From a virus, in the IMG/VR virus record IMGVR_UViG_3300044801_000208, positions 33,809 to 97,808 of that record: 64,000 nucleotides of DNA. One strand, given 5' to 3'. Of the stretch, positions 15,251 to 63,073 are shown in pieces. Numbering within the stretch: the first letter of the stretch is position 1; every line of letters starts with the position of its first letter. The translations under genes were made by a program, and so were the position numbers. The notes below the pieces were generated by a model, which was not told the DNA's origin, made no database searches, and saw nothing but the letters and a program-made list of their open reading frames with translations.

Positions 15251-15826
15251 ATGAAAATCTTGGGAGCGATGATAGGTTTAATCATGAGACTGTTGGCGAT
15301 CCTGGGCCTTTTGCTTTTCGCCCCGGCGATCTTCCTCGTCGTCCCGATCGTCCTTGCCTGCGGGGCGAGAGTGAACGTGGGCGGGCTGGCCTTCGCGTAC
15401 ATGCTGCTCGGCCCCTTCGTCTGCGGCGTCTGGACCATGTCCTTGTGCCACGCCCGCAGGATTCTGCGCGTGACGGGCGGCAACCCGCGCCTGTACAAGA
15501 AGAGTTTCGCCCGCGACACGGCCATGTGCTTCGGCTGGCTGTTCTTCGGCTTCTTCGGCGCGGTCGCCTCCGAGGTTCTGTTCCGCCTCGCCTACGTGCG
15601 CCACGGCGCTGACATCTTCTGGTTCTCCGCCGCGCCGATCGTGATCTTCGCCCCGACGCTTCTCGCCCTGATCTTCGGGGAGATAGACGTGATCGGAAGG
15701 CTCAAGTACCGCGATGAGATGGCGATACATGTGGCGATCCTCGGGCGCTTGCCCCCGGACTTCCCGACCTTCAAGGACTGGCGACGCCGCATGGCCGCGA
15801 TCTACCCAGGCGGCGGGGTGCCCTAG
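15251..15826 (+). CDS. Integral membrane protein (about 4 TM), hypothetical
   Basis: GGAGG RBS, upstream TATACT, hydrophobic segments. Its last codons derive from the inverted-repeat copy. Confidence 0.7.
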   Translation: MKILGAMIGLIMRLLAILGLLLFAPAIFLVVPIVLACGARVNVGGLAFAYMLLGPFVCGVWTMSLCHARRILRVTGGNPRLYKKSFARDTAMCFGWLFFGFFGAVASEVLFRLAYVRHGADIFWFSAAPIVIFAPTLLALIFGEIDVIGRLKYRDEMAIHVAILGRLPPDFPTFKDWRRRMAAIYPGGGVP

Positions 15827-15854
15827 CCGTTGGCGCGGAGCCACTTCAGGATGT
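15805..15854 (-). repeat. Left arm of an inverted repeat (partner at 37666-37727)
   Basis: ACATCCTGAAGTGGCTCCGCGCCAACGGCTA + GGGCACCCCGCCGCCTGGG, identical to the right arm except for a 12-bp deletion. Confidence 0.95.
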
Positions 15855-16879: not shown

Positions 16880-17171
16880 GACACTCAATACCGGAACCAT
16901 CAGTATGAGCAAAGATTTCCAGACGGCATTCCCAGAGGACTTCGAGCAGGAGCCGGACCCGAACGTCATCATGTGCAGATGGGGGTGCGGGCAGCCAGCG
17001 AAGTACGGGAACCTGAGGCCGGGCTTGCAGGGCGGCGACCCGCCGTGCTGCTCGGGCGACCCGAAGACCGGGCGCGTAAGCAAGGGGGAGTGCCCCGCAA
17101 TCAAAGGGGCCGCCTTGAGGGCGGCCCGGAGGGCTGGGCGGCTAGGCCGAAGGTGGCAGAGCCGCTTCTGA
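16878..17171 (+). CDS. Small Cys-containing hypothetical protein
   Basis: CRWGCG, CC and C residues; plausible codon bias; start uncertain. Confidence 0.45.
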   Translation: MTLNTGTISMSKDFQTAFPEDFEQEPDPNVIMCRWGCGQPAKYGNLRPGLQGGDPPCCSGDPKTGRVSKGECPAIKGAALRAARRAGRLGRRWQSRF

Positions 17172-17180
17172 TCTGAAATT

Positions 17181-17255
17181 TGGTAGCCCTGAGCGGTATC
17201 GATCCGCCTTCCGCGCCTTGAGAGGGTGCTGTCCTAGCCAGTAGACGACAGGGCC
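17181..17255 (-). tRNA. tRNA-Glu(CTC)
   Basis: Cloverleaf, loop CT-CTC-AA, encoded CCA; atypical T loop. Confidence 0.8.
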
Positions 17256-17262
17256 ACTTTCT

Positions 17263-17373
17263 GCTGGTACAGCTCGCGCCCGCCCAGGCGCGGTTGCTTG
17301 CGCCAGCGGAGCGGCGGGCGGGGAACCCACTCCGGCGCTGAAAGTCGCACTCTGGCCTCTGAGTTAACAGCGC
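17263..17373 (-). pseudogene. tRNA 5' half fused to unrelated GC-rich sequence
   Basis: GCGCTGTTAACTCAGAGGCCAGAGTG D-arm present; no T arm. Confidence 0.5.
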
Positions 17374-17378
17374 GAACT

Positions 17379-17454
17379 TGGTAGGGTATAGGAGAATCGA
17401 ACTCCTCATCATCTGATTGAAAGTCAGAGGTCCAAACCGATAGACGGATACCCC
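17379..17454 (-). tRNA. tRNA-Glu(TTC)
   Basis: TCTGA-CTTTCAA-TCAGA, GTTCGATTC, CCA. Confidence 0.9.
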
Positions 17455-17487
17455 ATCTCTAAATTTACTCCCGCGTGCTCCTAAATT

Positions 17488-17563
17488 TGGTGGACCTAGT
17501 CGGGATCGAACCGACGACCTCTTCCATGCCATGGAAGCGCGCTCCCAGCTGCGCTATAGGCCC
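17488..17563 (-). tRNA. tRNA-Ala(GGC)
   Basis: CTTCC-ATGGCAT-GGAAG, G3:U70, ACCA. Confidence 0.95.
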
Positions 17564-17566
17564 AGC

Positions 17567-17655
17567 GAACGGCTTTCGGCAGGTACAGGATTCGAACCCG
17601 CGTCTCCGGCTGCCCGGAATCCTAAGCCACTAGACGAACCCCTACTCGCCGTTCT
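17567..17655 (-). ncRNA. tRNA-like RNA with a 4-nt anticodon loop and extended acceptor helix
   Basis: D arm, TCCGG-GCAG-CCGGA, GGTTCGAATCC, closing helix GAACGGC/GCCGTTC; no CCA. Confidence 0.6.
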
Positions 17656-17679
17656 TTGCGTCGTGCACGGACGCAATCT

Positions 17680-17755
17680 TGGTAGCGCACGAGGGACTCG
17701 AACCCTCATTTCACACGCTGAGAACGTGGTTGCCTAGCCGTTAGCAGAGTGCGCC
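17680..17755 (-). tRNA. tRNA-Glu(CTC), second copy
   Basis: CACG-TTCTCAG-CGTG, GGTTCGAGTCC, CCA. Confidence 0.85.
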
Positions 17756-17761
17756 GAAACT

Positions 17762-17837
17762 TGGTGGACCTAAGGGGGCTCGAACCCCTGACCTCATCGT
17801 TGCGAACGATGCGCTCTCCCAACTGAGCTACAGGCCC
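17762..17837 (-). tRNA. tRNA-Ala(CGC)
   Basis: CATCG-TTCGCAA-CGATG, ACCA. Confidence 0.95.
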
Positions 17838-17847
17838 AACTTCAAAC

Positions 17848-17924
17848 TGGAGCGGCTGGCGGGATTTGAACCCGCGATCTCTTCCATGGCAAGGAAGCAT
17901 TCTACCAGGCTGAACTACAACCGC
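17848..17924 (-). tRNA. tRNA-Gly(GCC)
   Basis: CTTCC-TTGCCAT-GGAAG, TCCA. Confidence 0.95.
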
Positions 17925-17938
17925 GTATTTCCAATCTT

Positions 17939-18007
17939 TGGAGCGAGAGACCGGACTCGAACCGGCAGTCTGAGCACACTGTCGTTGTAATCCATTCCAC
18001 ACCGCTC
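17939..18007 (-). pseudogene. Degenerate tRNA-like element
   Basis: T arm GCCGGTTCGAGTCCGGT and CGCTCCA end; non-canonical D and anticodon arms. Confidence 0.55.
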
Positions 18008-18019
18008 ATAGTCAAAATT

Positions 18020-18183
18020 TTTGCTGCGTTTACGTCCCAGTCGGTCGATGGCTTTTACCCCATCGCGTCAGTCGGGGCATTCGCCGAGGCTGACGGACAT
18101 TCCGTGGTCGTCGAATCTCGTAGCCGAAGCTACGGCGTTTTTCTACCCACTTAAGGGAGTCCACGCGGATGCCACGCAGCAAA
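18020..18183 (-). ncRNA. Unclassified multi-helix structured RNA (~165 nt)
   Basis: Terminal helix TTTGCTGCGT/ACGCAGCAAA, CGTAGC-TTCG-GCTACG, CGTCAG/CTGACG, CGATGG/CCATCG. Confidence 0.65.
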
Positions 18184-18193
18184 CCTCTAAACT

Positions 18194-18268
18194 TGGAGCG
18201 GGTTACCGAAATCGAATCGGTCTCTGTGGCTTGGAGGGCCACGGCACCGCCAGTTATACCTAACCCGC
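18194..18268 (-). tRNA. tRNA-Gly(TCC)
   Basis: GTGGC-CCTCCAA-GCCAC, TCCA; C33 instead of U33. Confidence 0.85.
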
Positions 18269-18754
18269 TAAACGATAAAACTTTCCACACTGACTACTTT
18301 CTCGCGTTTGTTTATTGGTAGCGATCAGCCCCTTGTTCCTGTCCTCCGCTGTCTTTACTGCGTGACAGTTCGCACAACGTACGTCACATTTGGCTATTTC
18401 GTCCAAAACTCGCTGCCGACCTTTAGTCCAACCTTGGGCCAAATTGAACTTCTTTTCCTTTGGATCGCGATGGTCGAAGTGCAGGGCTGCTGCGTATTCC
18501 TTGTACCCACAATCCTTGCACCCCAGTTCCAGCTTTACAGAGTCAATCCATTTTCTGCGAGCGGCATACCGGTAATCTCTTGCACGACGGTTGCAGATAG
18601 TTTTTGTTTCTTTACGCTCTTCCGGCGTTTTTACCTGCGTTGAATCTTTGCAGACCCGTGTACAGAAAAATATTTTGTGCTTACACAGCTTGTACCGCGA
18701 CGGGTATATGTCAAAGTCATTTTTGCAAACCCAACATTGAACCGTTATCATCAC
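18260..18754 (-). CDS. HNH homing endonuclease within the tRNA operon
   Basis: GCKDCG, ALHFDHRDP..K, KCDVRCANCH; the 3' end overlaps tRNA-Gly. Confidence 0.85.
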   Translation of the reverse strand: MMITVQCWVCKNDFDIYPSRYKLCKHKIFFCTRVCKDSTQVKTPEERKETKTICNRRARDYRYAARRKWIDSVKLELGCKDCGYKEYAAALHFDHRDPKEKKFNLAQGWTKGRQRVLDEIAKCDVRCANCHAVKTAEDRNKGLIATNKQTRESSQCGKFYRLAG

Positions 18755-18800
18755 TATTTGCTCCCCCTACTTTGAATACTGTAGAAGGAGCAAATAGTTA

Positions 18801-19162
18801 ATTTACGCGACCTATAAGCGGGGTTCTGTAAGCACCGAAGTGCCCGACAGCCATTCGTCTAATCCACCTATTACTAGGCGGCTCAAGCCCCTAACCCGCA
18901 GATTGATAACGAACCGAGCAAGCTCTCTCTGCCTATTTAGGGTTGCTTCACGCAAGGTTTGCCATGCAACGACTGTTACCAGCCGCCCGGTGGTCTCTTA
19001 AACCGCCTTTTCACCCTTACCGTCTTGCGACGGCGGTATATTCTCTGTGGCACTGTCTATCACGGTTACCCGTGTCCGGGTGTTACCCGGTGCGCTGCTC
19101 TATGTAGCCCCGACTTTCCTCCCCCGTAAAATCACAGCGGCGACTGTCCGGTCAACGTAAAA
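18801..19162 (-). ncRNA. rnpB: RNase P RNA, bacterial type A
   Basis: GAGGAAAGTCGGGGCT (CR-I), AGTGCCACAGAGAA..ACCGCC, AGGGTGAAAAGGCGGT.TAAGAG, GGCAAACC, ACAGAACCCCGCTTA (CR-V); P1 helix TTTACG/CGTAAA. Confidence 0.95.
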
Positions 19163-19164
19163 TT

Positions 19165-19241
19165 TGGAGGTCCGGGGGAGAATCGAACTCCCGCATTTTC
19201 ACGTTTGCAGCGTGACGCCTTACCGTCTTGGCTACCGAACC
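19165..19241 (-). tRNA. tRNA-Cys(GCA)
   Basis: TCACG-CTGCAAA-CGTGA, TCCA. Confidence 0.9.
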
Positions 19242-19246
19242 AAACT

Positions 19247-19356
19247 AATTGGATCAAGTGCTCTACTACTGAGCTACACCCGCCATCTGTCGATAGCCGA
19301 AGCGTGACAGTGGGCGGGAGGGCGGGTACGAGACCGCCGACCTCCTGATCCAAACT
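19247..19356 (-). ncRNA. Circularly permuted tRNA-like RNA (YrlA/Y-RNA-like architecture)
   Basis: Order is anticodon-stem 3' strand, T arm, acceptor stem closed by a TTCG hairpin, D arm, anticodon-stem 5' strand; the ends pair (TTGGATCAGG/CTTGATCCAA). Confidence 0.75.
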
Positions 19357-19430
19357 TGGCGGGGCGTACGGGAGTCGAACCCGTGTGTCTCGGTAGACAG
19401 CCGAGTAAATTGCCGTCATTCTCACGCCCC
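19357..19430 (-). tRNA. tRNA-Asp(GTC)
   Basis: CTCGG-CTGTCTA-CCGAG, GCCA; pyrimidine at position 37. Confidence 0.85.
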
Positions 19431-19504
19431 GGACGCCGAGACGGGAATCGAACCCGTGAATAAACGTTTTGCAGACGTTCGCCTTACCACTTGGCTACTC
19501 AGCT
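19431..19504 (-). tRNA. tRNA-Cys(GCA), second copy
   Basis: AACGT-CTGCAAA-ACGTT; ends TCC abutting tRNA-Asp; 1:72 mismatch. Confidence 0.75.
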
Positions 19505-19518
19505 TACACAAAAATTAT

Positions 19519-19590
19519 GCCGCGATGATTAAGGGGCTGATCCCCATCCCGGCGCTCCGAAGAGCCTTCCGGTATCTATCGCCGTCGCGG
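19519..19590 (-). ncRNA. Unclassified three-way-junction RNA
   Basis: CCGCGA/TCGCGG closing helix, CCGG..GCTC-TTCG-GAGC..CCGG, GGGG-ATCAG-CCCC. Confidence 0.5.
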
Positions 19591-19601
19591 ACGACACACT
19601 C

Positions 19602-19671
19602 TGAGCGCTGTATCCACGTCTTAGGTGGGTGTTCTTCACAGACCGCTAAGTCTGGTACTGGACAGCGCTCA
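19602..19671 (-). ncRNA. Unclassified three-way-junction RNA with complementary loops
   Basis: TGAGCGCTGT/ACAGCGCTCA, CAGAC-TTAGCG-GTCTG, CCAC-CTAAGAC-GTGG. Confidence 0.55.
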
Positions 19672-19675
19672 AACT

Positions 19676-19750
19676 TGGTGGACACAGGGAGATTCGAACT
19701 CCATAGTTCTCATTGCAAGTGAGACGCATTCCCAATTATGCTACTGGCCC
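19676..19750 (-). tRNA. tRNA-Ala(TGC)
   Basis: TCTCA-CTTGCAA-TGAGA, ACCA; imperfect acceptor stem. Confidence 0.85.
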
Positions 19751-19762
19751 ACATTCAAAACT

Positions 19763-19838
19763 TGGTGCGCTGGAAGGGACTCGAACCCCCGATGAGTGTC
19801 TTGTAAGGGCACCGCTTTAGCCGCTAAGCTACCCGCGC
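19763..19838 (-). tRNA. tRNA-Val(TAC)
   Basis: Loop CT-TAC-AA, GGTTCGAGTCC, ACCA. Confidence 0.9.
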
Positions 19839-23373: not shown

Positions 23374-26300
23374 CTACATTTCGCACGCGCCTGCGGAACA
23401 GGCAAGCTCCTTGGCGGCCGTGGTCATGTCCTCTTTTTCAAAGTCGGGGAGGCGGGCCCAGTCTATGGACGGCTCCCTCCCCCTGAGGCTTAAATACTCG
23501 GCCTGGGTGATTTCCGTGTAGGGTGCCTGGCGGTATATCCCGTTGTCGTGGGGCTGGAAGCTGATCCCGCCGATCAGGTCGAAGTGCTTGAAGCACCAGG
23601 CCAGCACGTCGGTCCACTCGGCCTCGCGGACGTAGATCGTGCAGTTGTGAGTCAAGATGTTTCCCTCTAGCACAAAATGCCCTTCCTCTGGTTCCTCGAC
23701 GCAAAACACAGGCTCTATTTTGTCTGTCTTGCGTACCGCGACAATCTTCCAGAATTTGTCATGCTTAGCCGGTGAGAACCGGGACCGTTTGTCCTCCAGC
23801 ACAAAGAAGTTTTCATCAAGCGTGCCTTTATGTATCCCGACGACATAGCCCGTGTGACCGCCAAAATTCTTGGACCAGCGCTCCCCGATCTGGGTAGATA
23901 CAGCCAGCCCAGCTTTTGGGGCTGCTTCCTGGAGCCAAAGTAAGCTGTCACGAACACTGGACGCCAATGTACATTGCCCGTCCTGCGCTATGTGCCCGTC
24001 TGCGGCAAACCAGCCGCTGATAAACCCCCGCAGGTATTCTGGACTGCTTGTTGTGATGCCGGGCAGGGTCTTCCAGTTGTTTGGGAGCCCATAAAATCTG
24101 ACTTGCCCCACATCTTCCCTTGGGGTCGGCTTATATCCGGCTTGCTCAAACAGCACCGACAGCTTGCGGCTATCACAGCCGTTCGGGTCGTTGCAGAGAT
24201 ATATTTGGCAGGCTTTCGGCTGGCTGGTGCCGTCAGCGGAGGCCGCCACGCGGGCAGCCCCGTCCCCGTACGTGATCCCGTGGAGGACGGCTTGCTTGTC
24301 AAGGCTAACCCGGAAAGCGGGATTAACGGTGACAAACTGCCGCTTGCCGACAAAGCCGTGAATCTTGTCCGTAGGAACCAGCTTTTCCTTGTACCCAGCC
24401 CAGCGCCCGAAAGCGTAAGTCAACGGCCAGAGATGCGAAGCTGTAGTTTCTATCGTATGTTTTGCCCCACATCTCTCCAACTCAACCTCCCAAATGGGCT
24501 GTTTACCGAAACGACGCACAGTGGCATCCTTCCATACGCCTCGTTTGCCGAGCACGCGCACCTTCTCCCCGTCTGAGAATTGGGAGAAGCTTGCCAGCCC
24601 CCGGTCTGTGATAAACCGCGTTTTTCCAGAAAAGCAACTCGGGTTGTGCTCCGTCCAGTGCATCTTGTACGTCTTGTATGTCTCCAGCTGCTCCATGGCC
24701 GTGCGGTCGTTGCGGCACACGCTCGTGTCCGGCGACTCCAGGGCGAAGAAGAACACGTCGGAGTCGTTCGGCTTGTTGAGCTCCGGCTCGGACAGCCAGC
24801 CGATCGCCTTCATGAACTCGTTGACCGGGCTCTTGCGGTCCTCCTGCGTGCCGCGCATGATCCAGCGGGCGTAGCGGGCGTGGATGCCGGGCGAGCAGTT
24901 GACCAGCTGGGACACGGTGCCCGAGGGCTTGATGCAGGTGATGGCGGCGGGGACGGGGATGCCCAGCTTCCCGGCCCACTCCGTGGCGACCTCGATGGTG
25001 TACTCGCGCAGCTCGTCCAGGAACTTCGCCAGCTCGGGGCCGTTCGTGGACATCATGACGTTGTCCATGATGCCCGTGAGGGAGACGCCCAGCAGGCGCT
25101 CCTCCTCCGCGTTCTTCTGCCACTCCTTGCGGAGGTAGCGGAACTCGGTCAGCGTGGACTGGAGGCAGCCGATGATCGTCGCGATGCGGACCTTGCGCCT
25201 GATGGTCGCCTTGGTGTCGTGCGGCCTGATGACGCACTCGGAGAGGTTACAAAATCCTTGAGGACGGAGATTTATCTCACCGCAGTTATGAACATACAAC
25301 CCGTTGGCATCAAAGGCATTGATGCCGGGAATCGAGCAGTCGAATACTTCTTTATCGCCGATGTAGGTAACTGTTTCAACTTTAGAGAAAAACCGCTCAC
25401 GGTTGATTTCCCGTTGGTAGTTCGTCAACGCTGACATCAATTTCTCTTGCTTAGATTCATCCTCAAAGCCTACTACGCTAGCAAATTCTACGAGATTGTC
25501 ATTAGCTATAATAAGTTCATGTTGTGCTTGACAAAAATATTCCTTCGAACCCCCACTGCCATCAGGCAACAAACGCAAACCCGCTTCTCGACGGTCTCTA
25601 TAAATTGCAGAAACTACCCCCAGCCTAGCCAGCATCCGTTGGGCGACTTGCAACCCCGGCAAATCAATTGAAGAAAGGCGAACACTCACTCCCTTAGCTT
25701 GCGTTCCCTGTACAGAACCATCAGCGTCAAACCAACCCCGTAAAAATCCTCGATGAAAGTCGCTGCTAGTGGCCTCGATGTTTGGGGTCAGTTGTTTTGC
25801 TTGCGTAAAGCCGTACTCAGACGCTAAGGTACCCAGTTTTACAGAACCTACTCTGGTTCGATTGCACTGTGGTTGATCATTCCCTTTAAGATCAGAACGT
25901 GCCCCTACGGCTGCATAAACGCGAGCTATAGCGACCTCAACCAGCTCAGAGCGGCTGTCGCCCCAATAATCAAGGTTGGCTTTACCGCTAGACTCTATAT
26001 TGCCATCCCCTTTCAAATTACCTAGAAGCCAACCTTCGTCAAAGGTCCCAACCCCCTTGAACTGGTAATTACGGTGGTTATTCAAAACCACCCGATCCCC
26101 CACCTGTAGATCACTTACACGCTTCCATGAAGTACGCTGAGTCTTTTGGCTTAGGTAATCCATAACCAAAACAAGGTGGTCACCTGTTGCCTCCAACAAA
26201 TAGCCGTGAGTAGTTACCAATTGGTACACGGGTTTTACGCCTGTGAAGAAAAATCCGTCCTCAGTGGATTCATGCTCTTCGCCGTCCACCACGGCGGTAA

Positions 26301-28314
26301 ACTTTTTACCTAATAAATTACCGACTTGATTCGGTCCGTTCGCAGTTGTAATCCACACAGTTTTAGTTAAGCACGGGTTGGTGCCGAACTCGATGCCCTC
26401 CCACTTGCGCCTGCCCGTGCGCTTCGCGGAGTTGATGGCCGCGACGCGGTTGAAGATGCCGCGCTCGCCGGACTTGGACTCGATGAGGGTGAGGAACTCC
26501 TTGATGAAAATCTCCGGCTCGGGCTTCTCCGTGTAGGCCACGGAGTTGTTGGCCAGCCTGCGCCAGGGCGTGGCGCTCGGCTTGTACCACTCGCCCGTCT
26601 TCGCGCCGCGCATGCGGTCGTCGGACAGGTTGGACAGCGACAGCATCGCGCTGCGGCGCACGCCGCCCACGACGACCACGTCGCCGACCATGCACATGAG
26701 GTCGTGGCACTCCAGCGAGCTGAGCCTGCGCCCGGCCGCCTCCTTGAAGAGGCCGACGGTGAACTTGAAGAGGCGCTCCAAGGGCTCGGGGCCGGAGGCG
26801 CGGCCGCCCATGGTCTTGAGAACGGAGCCCGCTGGCCTGACGGCGCTGAGGTCCCAGGTCGGGACGGAGCCGCTGTAGAGGAGGCTGATCAGCTGGCGGA
26901 ACGCGTTGGACCAGCCGATCTTGGAATCCCTTACTTTGATGCAGGTCTCGACGGGATAGAACTTCTCGGCGATCGTGGGGAGGAGGTTGGTGTACTGGCG
27001 CTCGACGGAGAAGCCCACGCCCGTGCCGCACATGCTGAGGTACATCGCCTCGTCGAACGCCCTCGGGTCGTTGACCGCGATGTAGGAGCAGTTTCCGGTG
27101 ACTATCCCCCCGGCGAGCACAAATGTGCTGGTGTCGGGTACCTCAGCGCAAAAGACCTCCTTTTGGTCTCCCGTCTCCTCGACGGCGTCTATCGTGAAAT
27201 AAGACACCAATGGTTTGAAGTTTTCGCGTTTCCGGCTGCACAGGAAATCCTCCTCCACCATGGAGCTCCGGCTGAATCGCACCACGTATGAGTCTTTTTT
27301 GCGTTTTCCGTAGTTTGTTTCCGCCTTCTGCTTATGAAACCCCTGGACGACGCATCCGAGTCTTTCGGAGTTCAGCAGCAGCCACTCCAGCCCCTCGGCG
27401 GCGGTGCAAAGAGACACTGAGCCGCTCCCTCTGTTCACCGAACCGTCGGCGGCCATCCATCCGCGAATAAACCCCAGTAGGTACGACTCTGTTTCGGACA
27501 TCGGGGGGAGTTCTTTCAGCGCGTGGGTTGCCGCAAAATCGTCGTACAGCATAACTACCGGATCGCCGCCGAACGACGGTGGGTAGCACACGGGGTACCC
27601 CTCGAAATGCACCAGCAGCTCCCGGCTATCCCCGCAGAGGCGGATGTGCCAGCCCTTTACGCGTTTGCACGATTTGGTCGCGGTGCCGTCTCCGTATATG
27701 AGCCCGTGCCTCACCCCGAGCGGGTAGTCGTCGTCAATTTCCGGTTTTAGGGCGCGCGTGAACGGCACCCTGTCTTTTCGCTGAAGGCCGCTTGTGGGGA
27801 CGACTCTGCCGTCCGTCAGCAGCCAGCGGTGGTTGGCTGAGCATTCGACTGTTTTTTCCGTGTTTGAGTTGAGTTTCAGCTTGACGTTAAACGTGGGCTG
27901 TTTTCCGTAACCGTGAATCGCGGCCTCCGCCCACGCCCCGTTGGAGTTAACCACGGTGACGGATTCGCCCGCGACGGCTTGTATCTCCACGTTCCCGTGC
28001 TCGCGGGTGACGATTCTCGTCTCCCCCACGACAGGGTTGTACCCGGCGGCGTTGTCCTTCTCCAGCGCGGGGCCCGCCGTCATCATCGCCCGCATGGAGG
28101 GCATGACCTCCATGTGGTAGATCGCCTTCTCAAGCTCGGAGGCCGTCGCCTCGCGGTCGGCCTTGGGGATGCGCGGCGAAAAGAAGGACACGTAACGGCT
28201 TACCGTCTCGTCCCAGTGCTCCCTCCTGCCCTTTTCTTCCACCCAGCGTGCGTATCTCGACTTGTGTATGAAGGCGGAGTAGGTAGACATCTCGAACGGA
28301 GATTTGGACACCAT
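23374..28314 (-). CDS. nrdJ: Class II (adenosylcobalamin) ribonucleotide reductase with three inteins; about 637 aa of exteins
   Basis: SRYARW, PSMR, YN|CSY, GTGVGFS, GGVRRSA, TNP|CGEI, CNLSE, IKPSGTVSQL, C-terminal CSAGACEM. Confidence 0.92.
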   Translation of the reverse strand: MVSKSPFEMSTYSAFIHKSRYARWVEEKGRREHWDETVSRYVSFFSPRIPKADREATASELEKAIYHMEVMPSMRAMMTAGPALEKDNAAGYNPVVGETRIVTREHGNVEIQAVAGESVTVVNSNGAWAEAAIHGYGKQPTFNVKLKLNSNTEKTVECSANHRWLLTDGRVVPTSGLQRKDRVPFTRALKPEIDDDYPLGVRHGLIYGDGTATKSCKRVKGWHIRLCGDSRELLVHFEGYPVCYPPSFGGDPVVMLYDDFAATHALKELPPMSETESYLLGFIRGWMAADGSVNRGSGSVSLCTAAEGLEWLLLNSERLGCVVQGFHKQKAETNYGKRKKDSYVVRFSRSSMVEEDFLCSRKRENFKPLVSYFTIDAVEETGDQKEVFCAEVPDTSTFVLAGGIVTGNCSYIAVNDPRAFDEAMYLSMCGTGVGFSVERQYTNLLPTIAEKFYPVETCIKVRDSKIGWSNAFRQLISLLYSGSVPTWDLSAVRPAGSVLKTMGGRASGPEPLERLFKFTVGLFKEAAGRRLSSLECHDLMCMVGDVVVVGGVRRSAMLSLSNLSDDRMRGAKTGEWYKPSATPWRRLANNSVAYTEKPEPEIFIKEFLTLIESKSGERGIFNRVAAINSAKRTGRRKWEGIEFGTNPCLTKTVWITTANGPNQVGNLLGKKFTAVVDGEEHESTEDGFFFTGVKPVYQLVTTHGYLLEATGDHLVLVMDYLSQKTQRTSWKRVSDLQVGDRVVLNNHRNYQFKGVGTFDEGWLLGNLKGDGNIESSGKANLDYWGDSRSELVEVAIARVYAAVGARSDLKGNDQPQCNRTRVGSVKLGTLASEYGFTQAKQLTPNIEATSSDFHRGFLRGWFDADGSVQGTQAKGVSVRLSSIDLPGLQVAQRMLARLGVVSAIYRDRREAGLRLLPDGSGGSKEYFCQAQHELIIANDNLVEFASVVGFEDESKQEKLMSALTNYQREINRERFFSKVETVTYIGDKEVFDCSIPGINAFDANGLYVHNCGEINLRPQGFCNLSECVIRPHDTKATIRRKVRIATIIGCLQSTLTEFRYLRKEWQKNAEEERLLGVSLTGIMDNVMMSTNGPELAKFLDELREYTIEVATEWAGKLGIPVPAAITCIKPSGTVSQLVNCSPGIHARYARWIMRGTQEDRKSPVNEFMKAIGWLSEPELNKPNDSDVFFFALESPDTSVCRNDRTAMEQLETYKTYKMHWTEHNPSCFSGKTRFITDRGLASFSQFSDGEKVRVLGKRGVWKDATVRRFGKQPIWEVELERCGAKHTIETTASHLWPLTYAFGRWAGYKEKLVPTDKIHGFVGKRQFVTVNPAFRVSLDKQAVLHGITYGDGAARVAASADGTSQPKACQIYLCNDPNGCDSRKLSVLFEQAGYKPTPREDVGQVRFYGLPNNWKTLPGITTSSPEYLRGFISGWFAADGHIAQDGQCTLASSVRDSLLWLQEAAPKAGLAVSTQIGERWSKNFGGHTGYVVGIHKGTLDENFFVLEDKRSRFSPAKHDKFWKIVAVRKTDKIEPVFCVEEPEEGHFVLEGNILTHNCTIYVREAEWTDVLAWCFKHFDLIGGISFQPHDNGIYRQAPYTEITQAEYLSLRGREPSIDWARLPDFEKEDMTTAAKELACSAGACEM
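23644..24636 (-). mobile_element. RNR intein 3, LAGLIDADG
   Basis: CFSGKTRF...FISGWFAADG...ILTHN|C. Confidence 0.92.
25285..26373 (-). mobile_element. RNR intein 2, LAGLIDADG
   Basis: CLTKTVWI...FLRGWFDADG...LYVHN|C; AT-rich. Confidence 0.92.
27091..28035 (-). mobile_element. RNR intein 1, Pro1 class-3 type, LAGLIDADG
   Basis: PVVGETRI...SANHRW...VFCAEV...IVTGN|C. Confidence 0.85.
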
Positions 28315-28799
28315 TAGGCGGCCTTCCCGTACGATTTCGTCTTGCCGTTCAGGGCCCGCCAGGTCGTCATCGTAGCCGTGTTCATCCGCTCCGCTATCGT
28401 CGAGTACGTAAGGCCTTGAGCACGCATGGCGAAGACCGAATCGATTTGTTGGGGGCTCAAAACTGTGTGCTGAGGGACGCCATAGCACTGAATGTTGAAG
28501 AGCTTTGCGCCGCTGTTCTTGTTTTCTTCGGTCAGCTCAGCCTCAATTTTCCGCGCTGACCTGTTGTCAAGGCTTTGAGCGGCGATGACGACGTAGTCAG
28601 CCGGGGTGTACCCGGCGTTGAGTAAGCCTTGAATCCAGGTCTGGTGTTCTTTCGTGCGGTTTCCTCGTCCGCTGGGGCTAGACGAGCTTCCGATAGCCCA
28701 AGCGCGTCCGCCTGTGCCTTTGCCGACGTACACAACTTCTTTTGTTTCAGGGTGAATGTGAAGGTAGACGTAGAATCTATTGCCTGACCTGCTGACCAT
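28314..28799 (-). CDS. GIY-YIG-like endonuclease with C-terminal HTH
   Basis: FYVYLH...VVYVGKGTGGRA; KLFN. Confidence 0.8.
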   Translation of the reverse strand: MVSRSGNRFYVYLHIHPETKEVVYVGKGTGGRAWAIGSSSSPSGRGNRTKEHQTWIQGLLNAGYTPADYVVIAAQSLDNRSARKIEAELTEENKNSGAKLFNIQCYGVPQHTVLSPQQIDSVFAMRAQGLTYSTIAERMNTATMTTWRALNGKTKSYGKAA

Positions 28800-28831: not shown

Positions 28832-30030
28832 TTGATGCTCCCAGAGCAAGCTCTGGGATTCTTAGGCTACGCATAGCACAGTTCTGCTTACGTTGACGCC
28901 CAAGGGCTCCATCCGAGCCCACTTTGTTTTAGCCCTCGCCAGTATGCGTTTGGAGGCGTTGGTATCGCTGTGATCTTCGTGGTTACAGAAGATGCACTTG
29001 AACTTCTCACCCTTCCGATTATCTGGATGTGATCTCTCACATTTGTCGCATTCCTGGCTTGTGTACTGCGGTGGAACGATTCCTATAGTCCTGCCAGCGC
29101 TTTCAGCCTTGTAGGACGTGAACCATCTCCACATGCTCCAACCTGCGTCCAGAATCTGTTTCGGCAAATACCCGGCCATGTTTTGGACCCGCAAGTTTTC
29201 CATCGCTATGAACCCAAATTTTTTGACGATCTTCGTCGTCTCTTTATGCAAAAAGTCCAGGCGTTTGCTCCTGATCTTTTCGTGCAGTTTCCGAAGCAGG
29301 ATTACAGCTTTGGCTCGACTATGAGACTTCTTGTTCTTGCGTCTCGCAAGCCTACGTTGAGCAATCCTTAACTCGGGTTGGGCGTTCTCGTAGATTCTTG
29401 GGTTCTCCACAAAAGTCCCGTCGCTCAGGGCGGCGAACTTCGTGATCCCAAGATCAATGCCGGCCTCAAAGTCAGACACTGGCAATGGCGTGGGCTCGTG
29501 CTCAAAAGTGAGGATGGCGAACAGTCCGTTGACCGTGTTCAGGATGGTGCATGTTTTTATCTCGGCATCCTTCGGAAGTTCCCTGCTCAACCTGAGTTTG
29601 ACGTTCCCGATCTTGGACAAACTCAAGATATTGCCGTTGAGCGAAAATCCACTTTGGGGGTAGGTGAACGAGTTGTAGCGTCTCGCCGACTTGTATCTGG
29701 GGAATCCAAACCCCCGCCTGAAGAAGCCATTGAATGTCTTGTCCAACCTGTCCAAGACATTCTGTAGGACTTGGGAATACACATTCTTGAGGACTGGAAA
29801 AGTTGCCTTGAGTCCTGGGAGTTCCTTGTCCTGGTCAAATCTACGGCACGTGTTTCCACTCCTGTGGTTGAGGTTCCGTTGGAACAACGAGTCGTTGTAG
29901 AGGTCTCGGCACACATCTAGGGTTCTGGCAATGGCGTATCTCTTCGCCTTGTTCGCCACAATTTTGTATTTGTGTGCTTTTAGCATCATTGTCTAATACT
30001 CCAAACGACGCCCCTGGGCTTTCGGGGCTA
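28832..30030 (-). mobile_element. IS200/IS605-family TnpB-only element
   Basis: Right end GAATCCCAGAGC-TT-GCTCTGGGAGCATCAA; left hairpin GCCCC/GGGGC; no tnpA. Confidence 0.75.
28862..29989 (-). CDS. tnpB: TnpB RNA-guided endonuclease
   Basis: CRDLYN, GFPRYK, GIDLG, AMENL, YTSQECDKC..CIFC, DTNAS; RuvC D-E-D triad present. Confidence 0.95.
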   Translation of the reverse strand: MMLKAHKYKIVANKAKRYAIARTLDVCRDLYNDSLFQRNLNHRSGNTCRRFDQDKELPGLKATFPVLKNVYSQVLQNVLDRLDKTFNGFFRRGFGFPRYKSARRYNSFTYPQSGFSLNGNILSLSKIGNVKLRLSRELPKDAEIKTCTILNTVNGLFAILTFEHEPTPLPVSDFEAGIDLGITKFAALSDGTFVENPRIYENAQPELRIAQRRLARRKNKKSHSRAKAVILLRKLHEKIRSKRLDFLHKETTKIVKKFGFIAMENLRVQNMAGYLPKQILDAGWSMWRWFTSYKAESAGRTIGIVPPQYTSQECDKCERSHPDNRKGEKFKCIFCNHEDHSDTNASKRILARAKTKWARMEPLGVNVSRTVLCVA

Positions 30031-36565: not shown

Positions 36566-37674
36566 CGCCCAAGATCGCGCCTACCAGGTTTACGCAGGGC
36601 AGGACCGCCTCGCTCGGCCTGGACATCATGGGCCGCCTCTCCTCGGGCACCCTGAGAAAGGCCCCCGTTGAGACGATCGAGAGGGTCAAGACGGAGATCA
36701 CCGCGAACTGTGAGGAGATCATAGAGATCGGCGCGAGGATCAGGCCGCTCATGGTTGGGGACAAGCAGGTCGGGTGGGTGCGCGGGCTCCACTCCCAGGA
36801 GCGCAAGATGCTCAAGCGGTGGATCAGGGACCCCAACGACTTTATCGCGCTCACCTTGCAGCACGCCACCTCGTTCTCTAAGGAGGAGATTGAGGGGTTG
36901 CAGGCGTTCGAGATTCGTAGCCTCGTGGAGGTCGTGCGCCGGATGAGCGACTATGACGTGTCGCTGTACCCGTACCTTCCGGCCTACGTCACCACCCAAT
37001 CCTCTGAGGCGCTGTGGTACGGCAAGGGCGACTCCCTGACGTCTTTCGAGAACAAGGTGATCCGCATGCCCGACGGCAAGACCGTGACGATCGTGGCCCC
37101 GCCCGACCACTCCCGCATGTGGGCGACCCTGTGCAACTACCGTGAGCAGAGCAAGAAGAGGCTAGAGGAGAACATGAACGCCCTGTTCATCGTCCGCCCC
37201 TGGGCGGGCAGGCAGGCCGACCCGGTCGCTAACGAGCTGAGGTCAGTAGCGCGGCAGCTGGAGACGGGGTCCGACTACCAGTGGGAGCGGCTCGTGCGGT
37301 CGCCGTCTGCGGTCAACAAGAATGACGGCTGGGGCCACCCGGGCGATAGCGTGGAGGACCTGCGGCGCGAGCTCAAGGGCATGATGGAGGGCGACAAGCA
37401 CGAGCGCCTGATGGACGCCTGGGCCCGTCAGATGGAGCACGAGGCCAAGCAGAAGCAGAAGGACATAGAGGAGTTCCGCAAGAAGCGCGGCATCGACAAG
37501 GCGGGCGTCACGGAGACGCCGATGACGGTACTGACGGCGGACGAAGTCAGGAAGCGGCAGAAGGCGTTGAGGGAGGGCACGCCGCAGCCCGGGCTGGTGC
37601 AGAGGCGCGAGGAGTTCGAGATCGACTCGTCCTCCGCGCAGGTGGACAAGTTCAACAAGTACCGTACATCCTGA
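36547..37674 (+). CDS. Hypothetical protein, 375 aa
   Basis: Long GC3-biased ORF; its stop is supplied by the inverted-repeat arm. Confidence 0.8.
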   Translation: MDEQKVAPKIAPTRFTQGRTASLGLDIMGRLSSGTLRKAPVETIERVKTEITANCEEIIEIGARIRPLMVGDKQVGWVRGLHSQERKMLKRWIRDPNDFIALTLQHATSFSKEEIEGLQAFEIRSLVEVVRRMSDYDVSLYPYLPAYVTTQSSEALWYGKGDSLTSFENKVIRMPDGKTVTIVAPPDHSRMWATLCNYREQSKKRLEENMNALFIVRPWAGRQADPVANELRSVARQLETGSDYQWERLVRSPSAVNKNDGWGHPGDSVEDLRRELKGMMEGDKHERLMDAWARQMEHEAKQKQKDIEEFRKKRGIDKAGVTETPMTVLTADEVRKRQKALREGTPQPGLVQRREEFEIDSSSAQVDKFNKYRTS

Positions 37675-37835
37675 AGTGGCTCCGCGCCAACGGCTACGAC
37701 GCCCCCAAGGGCACCCCGCCGCCTGGGAAGAAGTACCGCGAGCTTGAGGCGGCGTTCATCGCCGAGGGCAGGAGGCGCGGGCTGACGCCCAAGGCCTGGG
37801 ACACCGAGGTGTGGCAGTTCTACGCGAATAAATAG
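37666..37835 (+). pseudogene. Orphan C-terminus of the HhH/Ogg-like glycosylase (contains the right inverted-repeat arm, 37666-37727)
   Basis: ILKWLRANGYDAPKGTPPPGKKYRELEAAF...WDTEVWQFYANK*; no start codon. Confidence 0.85.
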
Positions 37836-60300: not shown

Positions 60301-60825
60301 ATGGGCAAAGTGGGCACCAGTCGAACGATTGATCTTTTGGGTCAGGCCTTCAACCGATTCACCGTCCTCAAGAAAATAGGGCTGAACAAGTCTAGGTCAG
60401 CCGTGTGGGCGTGCAAGTGCGTATGTGGTGCACGTACGAAAGTTGTGGGTTCTGACCTCATCCGTGGTCGAATAAAGAGCTGCGGATGCCTTGCCAGGCA
60501 TGGAAAATGCAAGACAGTAGAATACGCGATTTTCCACTCCGCCAAGCACCGCGCTAAGCTCGGGAAAATTCCCTTCACTCTAAAACTGAGTGACATAGTT
60601 GTCCCTCTGATCTGTCCTGTCCTTGACATCCCGATTCATCGTCACGTCAAAAAACTACGCGAGGACAGCCCGTCCCTTGAGCGTATCTATCCAACAGAAG
60701 GGTACGTTCTCGGCAACGTGGCTGTCATCAGCCACAAAGCCAATCGAATGAAGGGGGAATCAACCCCTGAAGAACTGATAGCCCTTGGTGAGAAGTTCCG
60801 GAGGCTGCATGCGACTCTCCGGTAG
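60301..60825 (+). CDS. HNH-like homing endonuclease
   Basis: WACKCVCG, SCGC, CPVL, SPSLER..GYVLGNV.VIS.KAN. Confidence 0.85.
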   Translation: MGKVGTSRTIDLLGQAFNRFTVLKKIGLNKSRSAVWACKCVCGARTKVVGSDLIRGRIKSCGCLARHGKCKTVEYAIFHSAKHRAKLGKIPFTLKLSDIVVPLICPVLDIPIHRHVKKLREDSPSLERIYPTEGYVLGNVAVISHKANRMKGESTPEELIALGEKFRRLHATLR

Positions 60826-63073
60826 AAATTTTCAGGCCTGGAGCGAGTTCTCTTTGGATATTGAGGGGCTCACGATCCTGACCGGCCCGTCCGACACGGG
60901 CAAGTGCCTAGCCCCCGGCACGCCCGTGCTCATGTATGACGGTTCCATCAAGCTGGCTGATGGCATCCTCCTCGGCGACCTGCTGATGGGGTCTGACTCC
61001 AAGCCGCGTCGTGTTCTGTCCCTGGCACATGGCTGGGGAGAGATGTATGAAGTTATCCCCAAAAAGGGAGACTCTTACAAGGTCAACGGACCTCATGTCC
61101 TGTCCCTGGTCAGAACCGCCGCAGGCGTGCGGTGGAGAAGCGGGAAGCGAACTGACGGCCCGAAAACTAGGCTGGACAACGCCATCGTCAACCTGTCCGT
61201 ACAGGACTACCTCCGCAAAAGTCAGTCATTCAAACGCGTTGCGAAGGGTTATCGGGTGGGGGTGGACTTCCCTGAGCAACCCGTGGCGGTAGACCCATAC
61301 TTCTTTGGCTTGTGGCTAGGCGACGGAAGGTCTAATAGGCCGGAGATAACAAGCGATGATGTAGAGGTCGTTGAGGCGGTTTACGCGACGGCGGCCGCGG
61401 CAGGGCTAGAAGTCTCTATGTACGGCGCTGATAACGACAAAACCGCGTCGTGGCACATTAACACGGGAATTAGAGGGAGCAGACAGAATTCCGTGCTCAC
61501 GGGTCTGCGCGGTCTGGGTGTCATAGGAAACAAGCATATCCCGCTTCCGTACAAGGCAAATAGCCGCAGGAACAGGCTGGAACTTTTAGCGGGCCTCATG
61601 GATTCAGACGGAAGCCTGGACGCTTCTAATAACTATGACTTCGTGTCCAAGGTCGAACGCCTCGCCGCCGACGTCTGTTTTACAGCTCGTTCTCTGGGTT
61701 TAGCCGCCTACATGAAGCCCTGCGAGAAGACCTGCACCAACGGCAAGAATGGCCCCGCGACGGGGCGGTACTACCGGGTCTGCATATCCGGTGACATTAA
61801 GTCCATCCCCGTGCGCGTGGCGCGGAAACTGGCCGCACCAAGGCGGTCCAAAAGGAACGTCTTACGCACCGGGATAACGGTCCGCCCTGCGGGATACGGA
61901 GAATACTTCGGCTTCGAGATAGGCGGCGACGGGCTGTTCCTGCTGGGGGACTTCACCGTGACGCACAACAGCGCCCTGTTCCGCGCCCTCAAGGGCGTCC
62001 TCCGCAACGAGCTACCCGCCGAGTGGGTGCGCGACGGGCAGGACGAGCCGATGGAGGTCACCGTCGAGGCCGGGGGCTACAGGATCGCGGCGTCCCGCTC
62101 CCGCAAGGGCTCCACGAAGTACGAGGTCACGCCGGGGGTCACCGACCCGACCGACAAGTACGCCGCGCTGGCGGGCGGCGTCCCGGACGTCGTCAAGGGG
62201 CTGAAGTACGGCGAGGTCACGATAGGCACGTTCGACGTCGACCCTCTCTTCGGCAGGCAGAACTCCGCGCAGTTCCTCATCGACCCCGAGACCTTCAAGC
62301 CAGCCGAGGTGAACGCCATACTGGGCGCGTTCGGCGGCACCGAGAAGCTGGAGCGCGGCAAGAAGGAGGCCAACCTCCGCAAGACCCAGAAGGACGCCGA
62401 GGCCAGGAGCCTGGCCGAGCAGATACGGGGCGCGGAGGAGCGCAAGGCGTCCCTCGCCGGGATGCAGGCGGAGGGGCAGGCGCTCAGCGCCGCCCTGCAC
62501 GGGCTGGAGGGAGCCATCCGCAGCCTGGAGACCGAGACCTACTGGCTGGGCGCTGCGTCAGGTTATCGTCAGAGGATCGTCCCGTTGCGTCAGATTATGG
62601 ACGCTCTCATTCTGCCGGACACGACCGGGCTGGAGCAGCTCAACAGCCTCTCCCTGTACGCGGAGCAGGCGGCGGACGCGTCAGCCTACGCCAGGTGGCT
62701 CGCCAAGCCCCTGTCGACCGTTTCTAGCGCCATGGAGGACTGGGCGTGGGTCAGGGGCACCTGGAACACGATCGCCGCCCTGGAGGGCGCTGTGGAGGCG
62801 GGAAGGCACGTCGTGGCGACGGACGGGCTCAGGAGCTCGCTCACGGACGCCGAGCGGACGTATTCCGAGGCGGTCAGGCTGTGGAACAGTATTAGCAGGC
62901 TAGAAGTCCTCTCCTCGCTGCTGGGGGAACTCAAGGGTTCGGCCGACAGACTGGCCGGGGTCGAGGCGGAACTCTCAGCGGCGCAGGCGGAGCTCAAGAA
63001 GGGGCTATGCCCCAAGTGCGGTTTTGACGGAGTATGCCCTAATTGCGGAAATCGACTGTCAAACCCCCAGTAG
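60809..63073 (+). CDS. SbcC/Rad50-like ATPase, N-terminal half only, with intein
   Basis: RNFQ, LTGPSDTGK|SALFRAL, Q-loop (RQ...QFL), coiled coil, terminal CPKCG..CPNCG. Confidence 0.85.
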   Translation: MRLSGRNFQAWSEFSLDIEGLTILTGPSDTGKCLAPGTPVLMYDGSIKLADGILLGDLLMGSDSKPRRVLSLAHGWGEMYEVIPKKGDSYKVNGPHVLSLVRTAAGVRWRSGKRTDGPKTRLDNAIVNLSVQDYLRKSQSFKRVAKGYRVGVDFPEQPVAVDPYFFGLWLGDGRSNRPEITSDDVEVVEAVYATAAAAGLEVSMYGADNDKTASWHINTGIRGSRQNSVLTGLRGLGVIGNKHIPLPYKANSRRNRLELLAGLMDSDGSLDASNNYDFVSKVERLAADVCFTARSLGLAAYMKPCEKTCTNGKNGPATGRYYRVCISGDIKSIPVRVARKLAAPRRSKRNVLRTGITVRPAGYGEYFGFEIGGDGLFLLGDFTVTHNSALFRALKGVLRNELPAEWVRDGQDEPMEVTVEAGGYRIAASRSRKGSTKYEVTPGVTDPTDKYAALAGGVPDVVKGLKYGEVTIGTFDVDPLFGRQNSAQFLIDPETFKPAEVNAILGAFGGTEKLERGKKEANLRKTQKDAEARSLAEQIRGAEERKASLAGMQAEGQALSAALHGLEGAIRSLETETYWLGAASGYRQRIVPLRQIMDALILPDTTGLEQLNSLSLYAEQAADASAYARWLAKPLSTVSSAMEDWAWVRGTWNTIAALEGAVEAGRHVVATDGLRSSLTDAERTYSEAVRLWNSISRLEVLSSLLGELKGSADRLAGVEAELSAAQAELKKGLCPKCGFDGVCPNCGNRLSNPQ
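60905..61969 (+). mobile_element. SbcC intein (in Walker A), LAGLIDADG
   Basis: CLAPGTPV...FGLWLGDG...LAGLMDSDG...VTHN|S. Confidence 0.92.

Follow-up and report, generated by a model that had tools for sequence, protein, structure and literature searches.

RNase P RNA is the ribozyme that trims newly made tRNAs. What looks like a full-length gene for it inside the tRNA array of a phage raises the question of whether a virus can keep such a ribozyme of its own and, if so, with which protein and to what end it would be used. RNase P RNA has been treated as the product of a universal, usually single-copy cellular gene, which even serves as a marker of genome completeness (PMC8172020), and we found no phage- or virus-encoded RNase P RNA described in the full-text literature searched, with the reservation that most subscription journals lay outside this scope and an earlier report is not excluded. 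We are thus dealing with a known ribozyme family in a setting that we did not find described. Here we analysed a stretch of 64,000 nucleotides (the window), i.e., bases 33809-97808 of a 97,808-bp IMG/VR virus record, which CheckV rates as approximately 31% complete; hence the genome would be roughly 300 kb. Our collective results reveal that the window holds a genuine, complete and selectively maintained RNase P RNA gene (rnpB) of a large phage. That its product is a working ribozyme, maturing the phage tRNAs together with the host RnpA protein, we consider likely; transcription, the route of release, the use of host RnpA, catalysis and the benefit to the phage are all inferred.

The first-pass annotation, made from the letters alone, had read positions 18801-19162 as a complete-looking type-A RNase P RNA with the conserved regions, co-oriented among the tRNAs and starting a few nucleotides after the CCA of a tRNA-Cys. 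The Rfam model RF00010 (RNaseP_bact_a) bears this reading out: cmscan places the match at 18800-19159 on the minus strand, within 3 nt of that proposal, and the match spans positions 1-367 of the 367-position model without truncation. Its 268.9 bits against a gathering threshold of 100 (E 1.2e-86) are a very high score rather than the weak one that would have refuted the assignment. The RNA is 360 nt long (RNA position p corresponds to window position 19160 - p), and we read its anatomy off the model alignment; all coordinates of the gene, the tRNA array and the features flanking them refer to the minus strand. The helices of a type-A RNA are all present (P1/P2, P3, P5, P7, P8, P9, P10/11, P12-P16 and P18), and P13, P14, P16 and P18 each depart from the model by at most one mismatch, which satisfies our helix test for this type as opposed to type B with its P5.1, P10.1 and P15.1. 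P4, whose disruption would also have spoken against the gene, is intact and covaries. Its 5' strand AAGUCGGGG (19108-19116) pairs with the 3' strand CCCCGCUU (18816-18823), the universally conserved U is bulged, and the one swapped pair, G-C where most bacteria have C-G (the 5' strand thus carrying G for their C), is compensated; our test of this helix, flanked by the universally conserved J3/4 and ACAGAA sequences, was passed. The flipped pair was also considered as a signature of phage copies and rejected, since many MAGs of Acidimicrobiia and other Actinomycetota share it.

The remaining parts of the molecule follow the class closely. The specificity domain (18950-19095) is complete from P7 to P14, with the GNRA loops GUAA in L9, GCAA in L12 and GUAA in L14; L18 is likewise GUAA, and GNRA tetraloops at these four places are the ones that make the long-range contacts of type-A RNAs, by docking into P8 and P1. 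The P6 pseudoknot is formed by GAGC in J5/7 (19097-19100) and GCUC in the P17 region (18916-18919), and L15/16 reads GGGU (18894-18897), thereby holding the GGU motif that pairs with the 3' CCA of tRNA. Among the joining segments, J18/2 (AGACGAAUG) and J5/15 (GCAA) fit the consensus, as do J11/12, J12/13 and J14/11 (ACAGAGAAUAUACC, GUAAGGGUGAAAAGG and GGCAAACC, respectively) except for one A-to-G change in J11/12. An extra hairpin, GCAC-UUCG-GUGC (18832-18843), lies between the 3' strands of P2 and P4 in a P19-like position, and related viral RNAs have a hairpin at the same place with another stem sequence. P3 is short and contains a G-G mismatch, P17 is present but irregular, and P18 starts with a G-A mismatch. 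These departures from the consensus are small, although the irregularities of P3, P17 and P18 weigh against the reading as a working ribozyme.

The record is viral, as had been assumed and remained to be confirmed: it encodes a large terminase (60785-63073), a UvsX-like recombinase, HNH endonucleases, a tail-fibre-like protein, helicases, TnpB transposases and a clamp loader, and genes for endonuclease VII and a sigma-70-type factor sit just upstream of the array. In the other 34 kb of the record no Rfam family was matched, hence no rRNA or further tRNA genes. The terminase has relatives on five IMG/VR contigs, two of which, G001 and G003, also carry rnpB. With phage genes on both sides of rnpB in the window and the same position of the gene in these related phages, our test of a viral contig and a conserved position was met.

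Several further observations were made on the same record. A 1704-aa ribonucleotide reductase ORF (23374-28488, minus strand) shows the reductase match in four stretches together with matches to endonuclease-type families, and one or more inteins likely interrupt it. The record has at least two TnpB-type (OrfB_IS605) genes (window 28862-29989 and L196 7583-8635, both on the minus strand), the first of which, with a best database relative at 67% identity, was uninformative as a clue to the host. A 40-nt inverted repeat (15815-15854 and 37666-37705, 93% complementary) flanks a 21.8-kb segment that holds the tRNA/rnpB array, the sigma factor, the ribonucleotide reductase and a TnpB gene, and this segment may be invertible. 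Finally, the heptamer RGTATTA occurs at 15 sites in the window (e.g., 29994, 30037, 44816, 56588, 58602 and 60288) against 2.7 expected from shuffles, none of 100 shuffles reaching so high a count; it is a candidate for a phage-specific promoter or regulatory motif.

Inside the phage genome, rnpB belongs to an array of 12 co-oriented tRNA genes (Val, three Ala, two Cys, Asp, two Gly and three Glu) that ARAGORN identified at 17181-19838. Directly upstream lies tRNA-Cys(GCA) (19165-19241), a neighbour shared with both related phages. Its encoded CCA ends at 19165 and rnpB begins at 19159, leaving a 5-nt spacer, AAUUU (19160-19164), so that the placement noted at first sight holds. The conserved downstream neighbour in all three phages is tRNA-Gly(UCC) (18194-18268). 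CCA is encoded in 11 of the 12 tRNAs; only the upstream tRNA-Cys (19431-19504) lacks it, and no gap separates this gene from tRNA-Asp. Almost every tRNA of the array is followed by an A/U-rich trailer, A(G/A)UUU, and the spacer before rnpB is of the same kind. In E. coli, RNase E-type enzymes cleave tRNA precursors at trailers of this sort; cutting by an enzyme of this type at the array trailers remains an inference by analogy. Past the last tRNA stands a terminator-like GC hairpin (17107-17127), where the transcript of the array likely ends. Our promoter scan found no sigma-70-like promoter on the minus strand near the array, which says little because the phage encodes its own sigma factor. 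The GC content falls to 52% around the array, as is expected of a cluster of RNA genes.

The array has other peculiarities. Apart from Cys, its tRNAs serve only GNN codons (Val, Ala, Asp, Glu and Gly), and this restricted set and its order recur in both related phages. Between tRNA-Asp and tRNA-Cys, a 115-nt RNA (19242-19356) folds strongly (-47.3 kcal/mol, z -3.7) and reads like a circularly permuted tRNA, running from T-arm, acceptor 3' strand and CCA through a linker hairpin to the acceptor 5' strand and D-arm; it is closed by a long stem and has no anticodon loop, and no sequence counterpart of it was found in the loci of the related phages. Two degenerate tRNA-like stretches were not called by ARAGORN, one at 17577-17642 (a weak RF00005 match, 24.3 bits) and one at about 17940-18008, with a T-arm and an acceptor end with CCA.

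Between rnpB and tRNA-Gly(UCC), the window has an HNH homing-endonuclease ORF (18260-18754; phrog_2255 and phrog_3106 HNH endonuclease, E 1e-23). An 18-bp hairpin (18753-18798) directly follows the 3' end of rnpB, and the 76-nt stretch 18740-18815 around it folds with -28.7 kcal/mol (z -6.5). Its 3' arm carries a Shine-Dalgarno-like GGGGGAG (18762-18768) and the GTG start of the HNH gene (18752-18754), and its loop contains AGTATTC. The hairpin probably controls translation of the HNH gene and may protect the 3' end of rnpB as well. At the same junction, G003 has an unrelated HNH gene and G001 has none; G003 has a further homing endonuclease two tRNAs upstream, which is also missing from G001. 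We considered the junction ORF as a conserved partner gene of rnpB and rejected it, given that the ORFs of the window and G003 are not homologous; they are therefore independent mobile insertions.

Taken together, these features allow a route to be proposed by which the gene would yield a working enzyme. The array would be transcribed into a polycistronic precursor ending at the 17107-17127 hairpin, and the ribozyme would be freed by cleavage at the A/U-rich trailers and by the same tRNA-end processing that separates the tRNAs. In G001, only 4 nt separate the end of rnpB from tRNA-Gly(UCC), so that the 3' flank of the ribozyme would itself be trimmed when RNase P cleaves there. Once freed, the RNA is predicted to fold into the classical catalytic and specificity domains and to bind host RnpA, since the phage appears to bring none. 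It would then take the 5' leaders off the phage pre-tRNAs, and off host pre-tRNAs as well, the intact specificity domain reading the stacked T-arm and acceptor and the GGU of L15 reading the encoded CCA. The benefit may lie in sufficient RNase P activity when phage tRNAs are made in a burst, without dependence on transcription of the host rnpB. The purposes that the first-pass annotation had suggested, insurance against decay of host RNA or processing of the atypical tRNA-like RNAs of the array, are likewise inferences.

The protein partner is the step at which this scheme meets its first rival. An initial inspection had seen no RnpA gene in the window, and a PF00825 search (E <= 1) extends this absence to the entire 97.8-kb record; with about 31% of the genome at hand, a protein subunit encoded elsewhere by the window's phage is not excluded. 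The same search, positive in the control genomes, gave no PF00825 match for G001 or for three further phage records with rnpB (268-463 kb). Two of these four records are rated 100% complete, and one has terminal repeats. In the records searched, these phage RNAs are thus, as a class, not accompanied by the protein. RNA and protein subunits of bacterial RNase P from distant species can be reconstituted with each other, for which reason a partnership with host RnpA is the simplest interpretation, though still an inference. The same absence from five rnpB-carrying records, two of them complete, would also fit a ribozyme that does not rely on host RnpA, acting in vivo alone or with an unrecognised phage protein. 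It is generally known that type-A RNAs are catalytic in vitro without protein, and a cyanelle rnpB transcript has been reported to be active without it (PMC6330054). Against this, nothing in the window's RNA departs from RnpA-dependent type-A RNAs, and most of the neighbouring ORFs have no family match by which a novel partner might be recognised. Moreover, it is general knowledge that RnpA is essential in vivo in bacteria and that every bacterial host supplies it, so that a new partner would not be needed. We therefore regard a ribozyme independent of host RnpA as unlikely.

An RNase P RNA gene inside a tRNA array is not confined to one phage. A scan of IMG/VR with a single exact pattern returned 37 contigs with the type-A P4 motif, and RF00010 scored above threshold in 12 contigs (63-463 kb) of the 15 larger ones that were scanned, where rnpB generally lies among many co-oriented tRNA matches and in several cases beside tmRNA. 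Two loci, L016 and L033, contain both P4 strands of an RNase P RNA yet stay below the Rfam gathering threshold. In many small contigs the motif sits at or near the contig end, and these look like prophage flanks. As a separate observation, other large viral contigs with rnpB-bearing arrays carry GOLLD RNA (212 bits) or tmRNA in or beside the array; the loci of this GOLLD/tmRNA/RNase P group are L033 5070-5488 (on a 385-kb viral contig), L016 8789-9083, L023, L038 and L201.

The relatives bear on whether the gene is of use to the phage at all. Full-model RF00010 matches were obtained in G001 (170-kb contig, terminase 57% identical; 181 bits) and G003 (58-kb contig, terminase 50% identical; 169 bits). 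Of the three terminase relatives without rnpB, two are fragments estimated as 9% and 24% complete, and the third is a 51-kb contig, estimated as 71% complete, whose terminase is 42% identical. The three phages with the gene have in common the order Val(UAC)-Ala(UGC)-...-Cys-Asp-Cys(GCA)-rnpB-Gly(UCC)-Ala/Glu/Gly, and the gaps between CCA and rnpB are 5, 5 and 3 nt. The RNAs themselves differ: in G001, P12 is cut down and P13/P14 are deleted, stretches of 24 and 45 model positions being reduced to 10 and 3 nt, and in G003, P12 is remodelled with an insertion and P13/P14 are also gone. The window's rnpB is the most complete of the three orthologues.

Phages capture host genes, homing endonucleases crowd this locus, and the changes in P12 and P13/P14 of the two orthologues could be read as decay. 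All this would be in line with a passenger copy that came from a cell along with tRNA genes and has since been neutral or decaying, with no role in the phage. However, loss of P13/P14 also occurs in functional bacterial RNAs (PMC8172020), the window's copy retains every conserved element, and the position of the gene has been kept although the terminases are only 50-57% identical. The RNA, about 60% identical, has moreover kept its helices by compensatory change. Across all loci in which both P4 strands were found, C/G in the 5' strand and G/C in the 3' strand change together without exception. On the eight RNAs of the viral clade described below, RNAalifold recovered P1, P3, P4, P5, P7, P8 and P18; compensatory changes occur in 32 of the 54 predicted pairs. 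From the Rfam alignment of the window's RNA we also drew up an explicit structure of the type-A catalytic domain, P4 and P6 pseudoknots included, and projected it onto the eight-RNA alignment. In the true register 81.7% of the cells were paired, as compared with 37-43% when the 3' partners were slid by 1-3 columns; in 41 of 68 pairs both partners had changed, and the observed values were not attained in any of 500 shuffles. The tested structure comes from the window's own sequence, which favours the measure of pairing but not the compensatory counts against the slid controls. Within the clade P4 is 94% paired, its swapped pair being G-C in four RNAs and C-G in three, and P6 takes the forms GAGC:GCUC (the window), GAGU:ACUC, AAGC:GCUU and GAAC:GUUC. 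With its helices and both pseudoknots kept at about 60% identity, the RNA is therefore under selection for its fold.

A passenger should also have a donor, and no donor-like cellular sequence was found in the genomes searched. In a blastn comparison with the 37 IMG/VR loci and 120 genome contigs (those sharing the P4 G-variant), the best matches had 72-74% identity over the approximately 190-nt conserved core, and in 301 Actinomycetota and 301 Pseudomonadota genomes the best were 73% and 75%, respectively, covering core nt 36-228 only. The Actinomycetota sample includes six unpublished genomes (G014, G095, G101, G161, G187 and G239), all of them weak matches on which no claim rests individually. 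On the trimmed alignment columns, overall identity never exceeded 65%. Exact patterns of the window's P4 region returned nothing from IMG/VR or metagenome contigs; relaxing the pattern brought up RNase P RNAs of other phage arrays in metagenome contigs, none close to the window's, and the GenBank phage collection gave six weak partial matches only, none of them an annotated phage RNase P RNA and one of them a Salmonella genome record. Hence, within the genomes of two phyla, the P4-variant contigs, IMG/VR and the metagenome pattern matches, no cellular or viral sequence exceeds about 75% identity to rnpB, and then over the core only; with a best match of 72-75% confined to nt 36-228, no donor or host can be named from the blastn search.

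In a FastTree phylogeny, the window's RNA falls into an all-viral clade of eight with a support of 0.985, which drops to 0.875 once the nearest cellular sequences of the two phyla are added. Its members come from the window, G001, G003 and contigs of 463, 385, 146, 100 and 80 kb, all of them large viral contigs. This grouping can only be called suggestive, because trees of RNase P RNA are weak at such depth, fast evolvers attract each other and the cellular sample is limited: it comprises two phyla plus the P4-variant genomes, and long-branch attraction could inflate the viral clade. As far as sequence comparison can tell, rnpB does not appear to be a recent capture, and we hold a passenger without a role to be improbable.

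A role need not mean catalysis. The RNA could instead act as a decoy or regulator that soaks up host RnpA or pre-tRNAs and so biases processing towards the needs of the phage, or it could be a mere structural spacer in the precursor. None of the records searched encodes a protein subunit, in agreement with such a part, and embedding in the precursor would raise the local concentration. Nevertheless, a decoy would have no need for the catalytic core, the bulged U of P4, the GGU of L15, the P6 pseudoknot and a full specificity domain, all of which are kept and covary, so there is little probability left for a role short of catalysis. As for host DNA, whether contamination, a chimeric assembly or the attachment-site remnant of a host rnpB, small IMG/VR contigs with rnpB at the contig end like prophage flanks and the 52% GC dip around the array speak for it, but we dismiss it as extremely improbable, for the gene is complete and has no adjacent integrase (on which grounds the attachment-site remnant is rejected), lies between phage genes on a single viral contig of 97.8 kb and has no close match in any cellular genome searched, and the same layout in two independent assemblies of related, diverged phages cannot be explained by misassembly, the danger of which had been raised at the outset.

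Given the working ribozyme that we prefer, its history may also be sketched. We lean towards the view, with reserve, that the window holds the near-ancestral full-size form in a lineage of large phages that has long kept its own active RNase P ribozyme, borrowing only RnpA from the host, and that G001 and G003 are part-way through a natural minimisation of the specificity domain. If true, a virus-encoded ribozyme acts in tRNA maturation, and these phages offer a natural series that shows which RNase P RNA parts can be spared when the phage has only its own tRNAs as substrates. Even apart from that history, the orthologues form a natural deletion series for studies of RNase P structure and function, full-size in the window and without P13/P14 in two relatives. 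A complete and selectively maintained viral copy adds a ribozyme to the translation-related functions that large phages bring with them, and raises the question of why host RNase P should be limiting or unreliable during infection. It also means that rnpB matches in metagenomic bins cannot be assumed to be cellular.

Set against known systems, the RNA is closest in structure to the bacterial class A RNAs (RF00010; E. coli M1 RNA, the product of rnpB, and Thermotoga maritima P RNA), with which it shares P1-P18 including P13, P14, P16 and P18, the P4 and P6 pseudoknots, the GGU of L15 and the GNRA loops L9, L14 and L18. Unlike them, it is virus-encoded and does not stand alone but follows a tRNA by 5 nt within an array, with no rnpA found in the partial record, and it differs in its flipped P4 pair (found also in Acidimicrobiia), short P3, irregular P17 and the UUCG hairpin before the P4 3' strand. 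Among published cases, Mycobacterium austroafricanum and M. sp. YC-RL4 come nearest, with extra copies of the RNase P RNA (RPR, rnpB) that have conserved catalytic residues, differences in the specificity domain and an endonuclease gene in between; horizontal acquisition was suggested for them (PMC9569102). The HNH endonuclease abutting the window's rnpB is a point of likeness. However, the mycobacterial copies were described from bacterial genomes, without assignment to a phage, and the specificity domain of the window's RNA is complete.

A functional analogue is found in organelles: the glaucophyte cyanelle and other plastids encode rnpB, and the gene for the protein subunit is absent from the plastid genome (PMC6330054). 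There, as here, a small dependent genome has the gene for the RNA subunit alone, beside its tRNA set. Organelles inherited their rnpB from a bacterial ancestor, whereas that of the window is carried by a virus, and its partner would be the RnpA of the infected cell. The gene also occupies the same niche as other translation-related RNA genes of large phages, namely tRNA arrays, sometimes with tmRNA. The pre-tRNAs of phage T4 are classical substrates of host RNase P. Such phages rely on the ribozyme of the host, whereas the window's phage brings the ribozyme itself.
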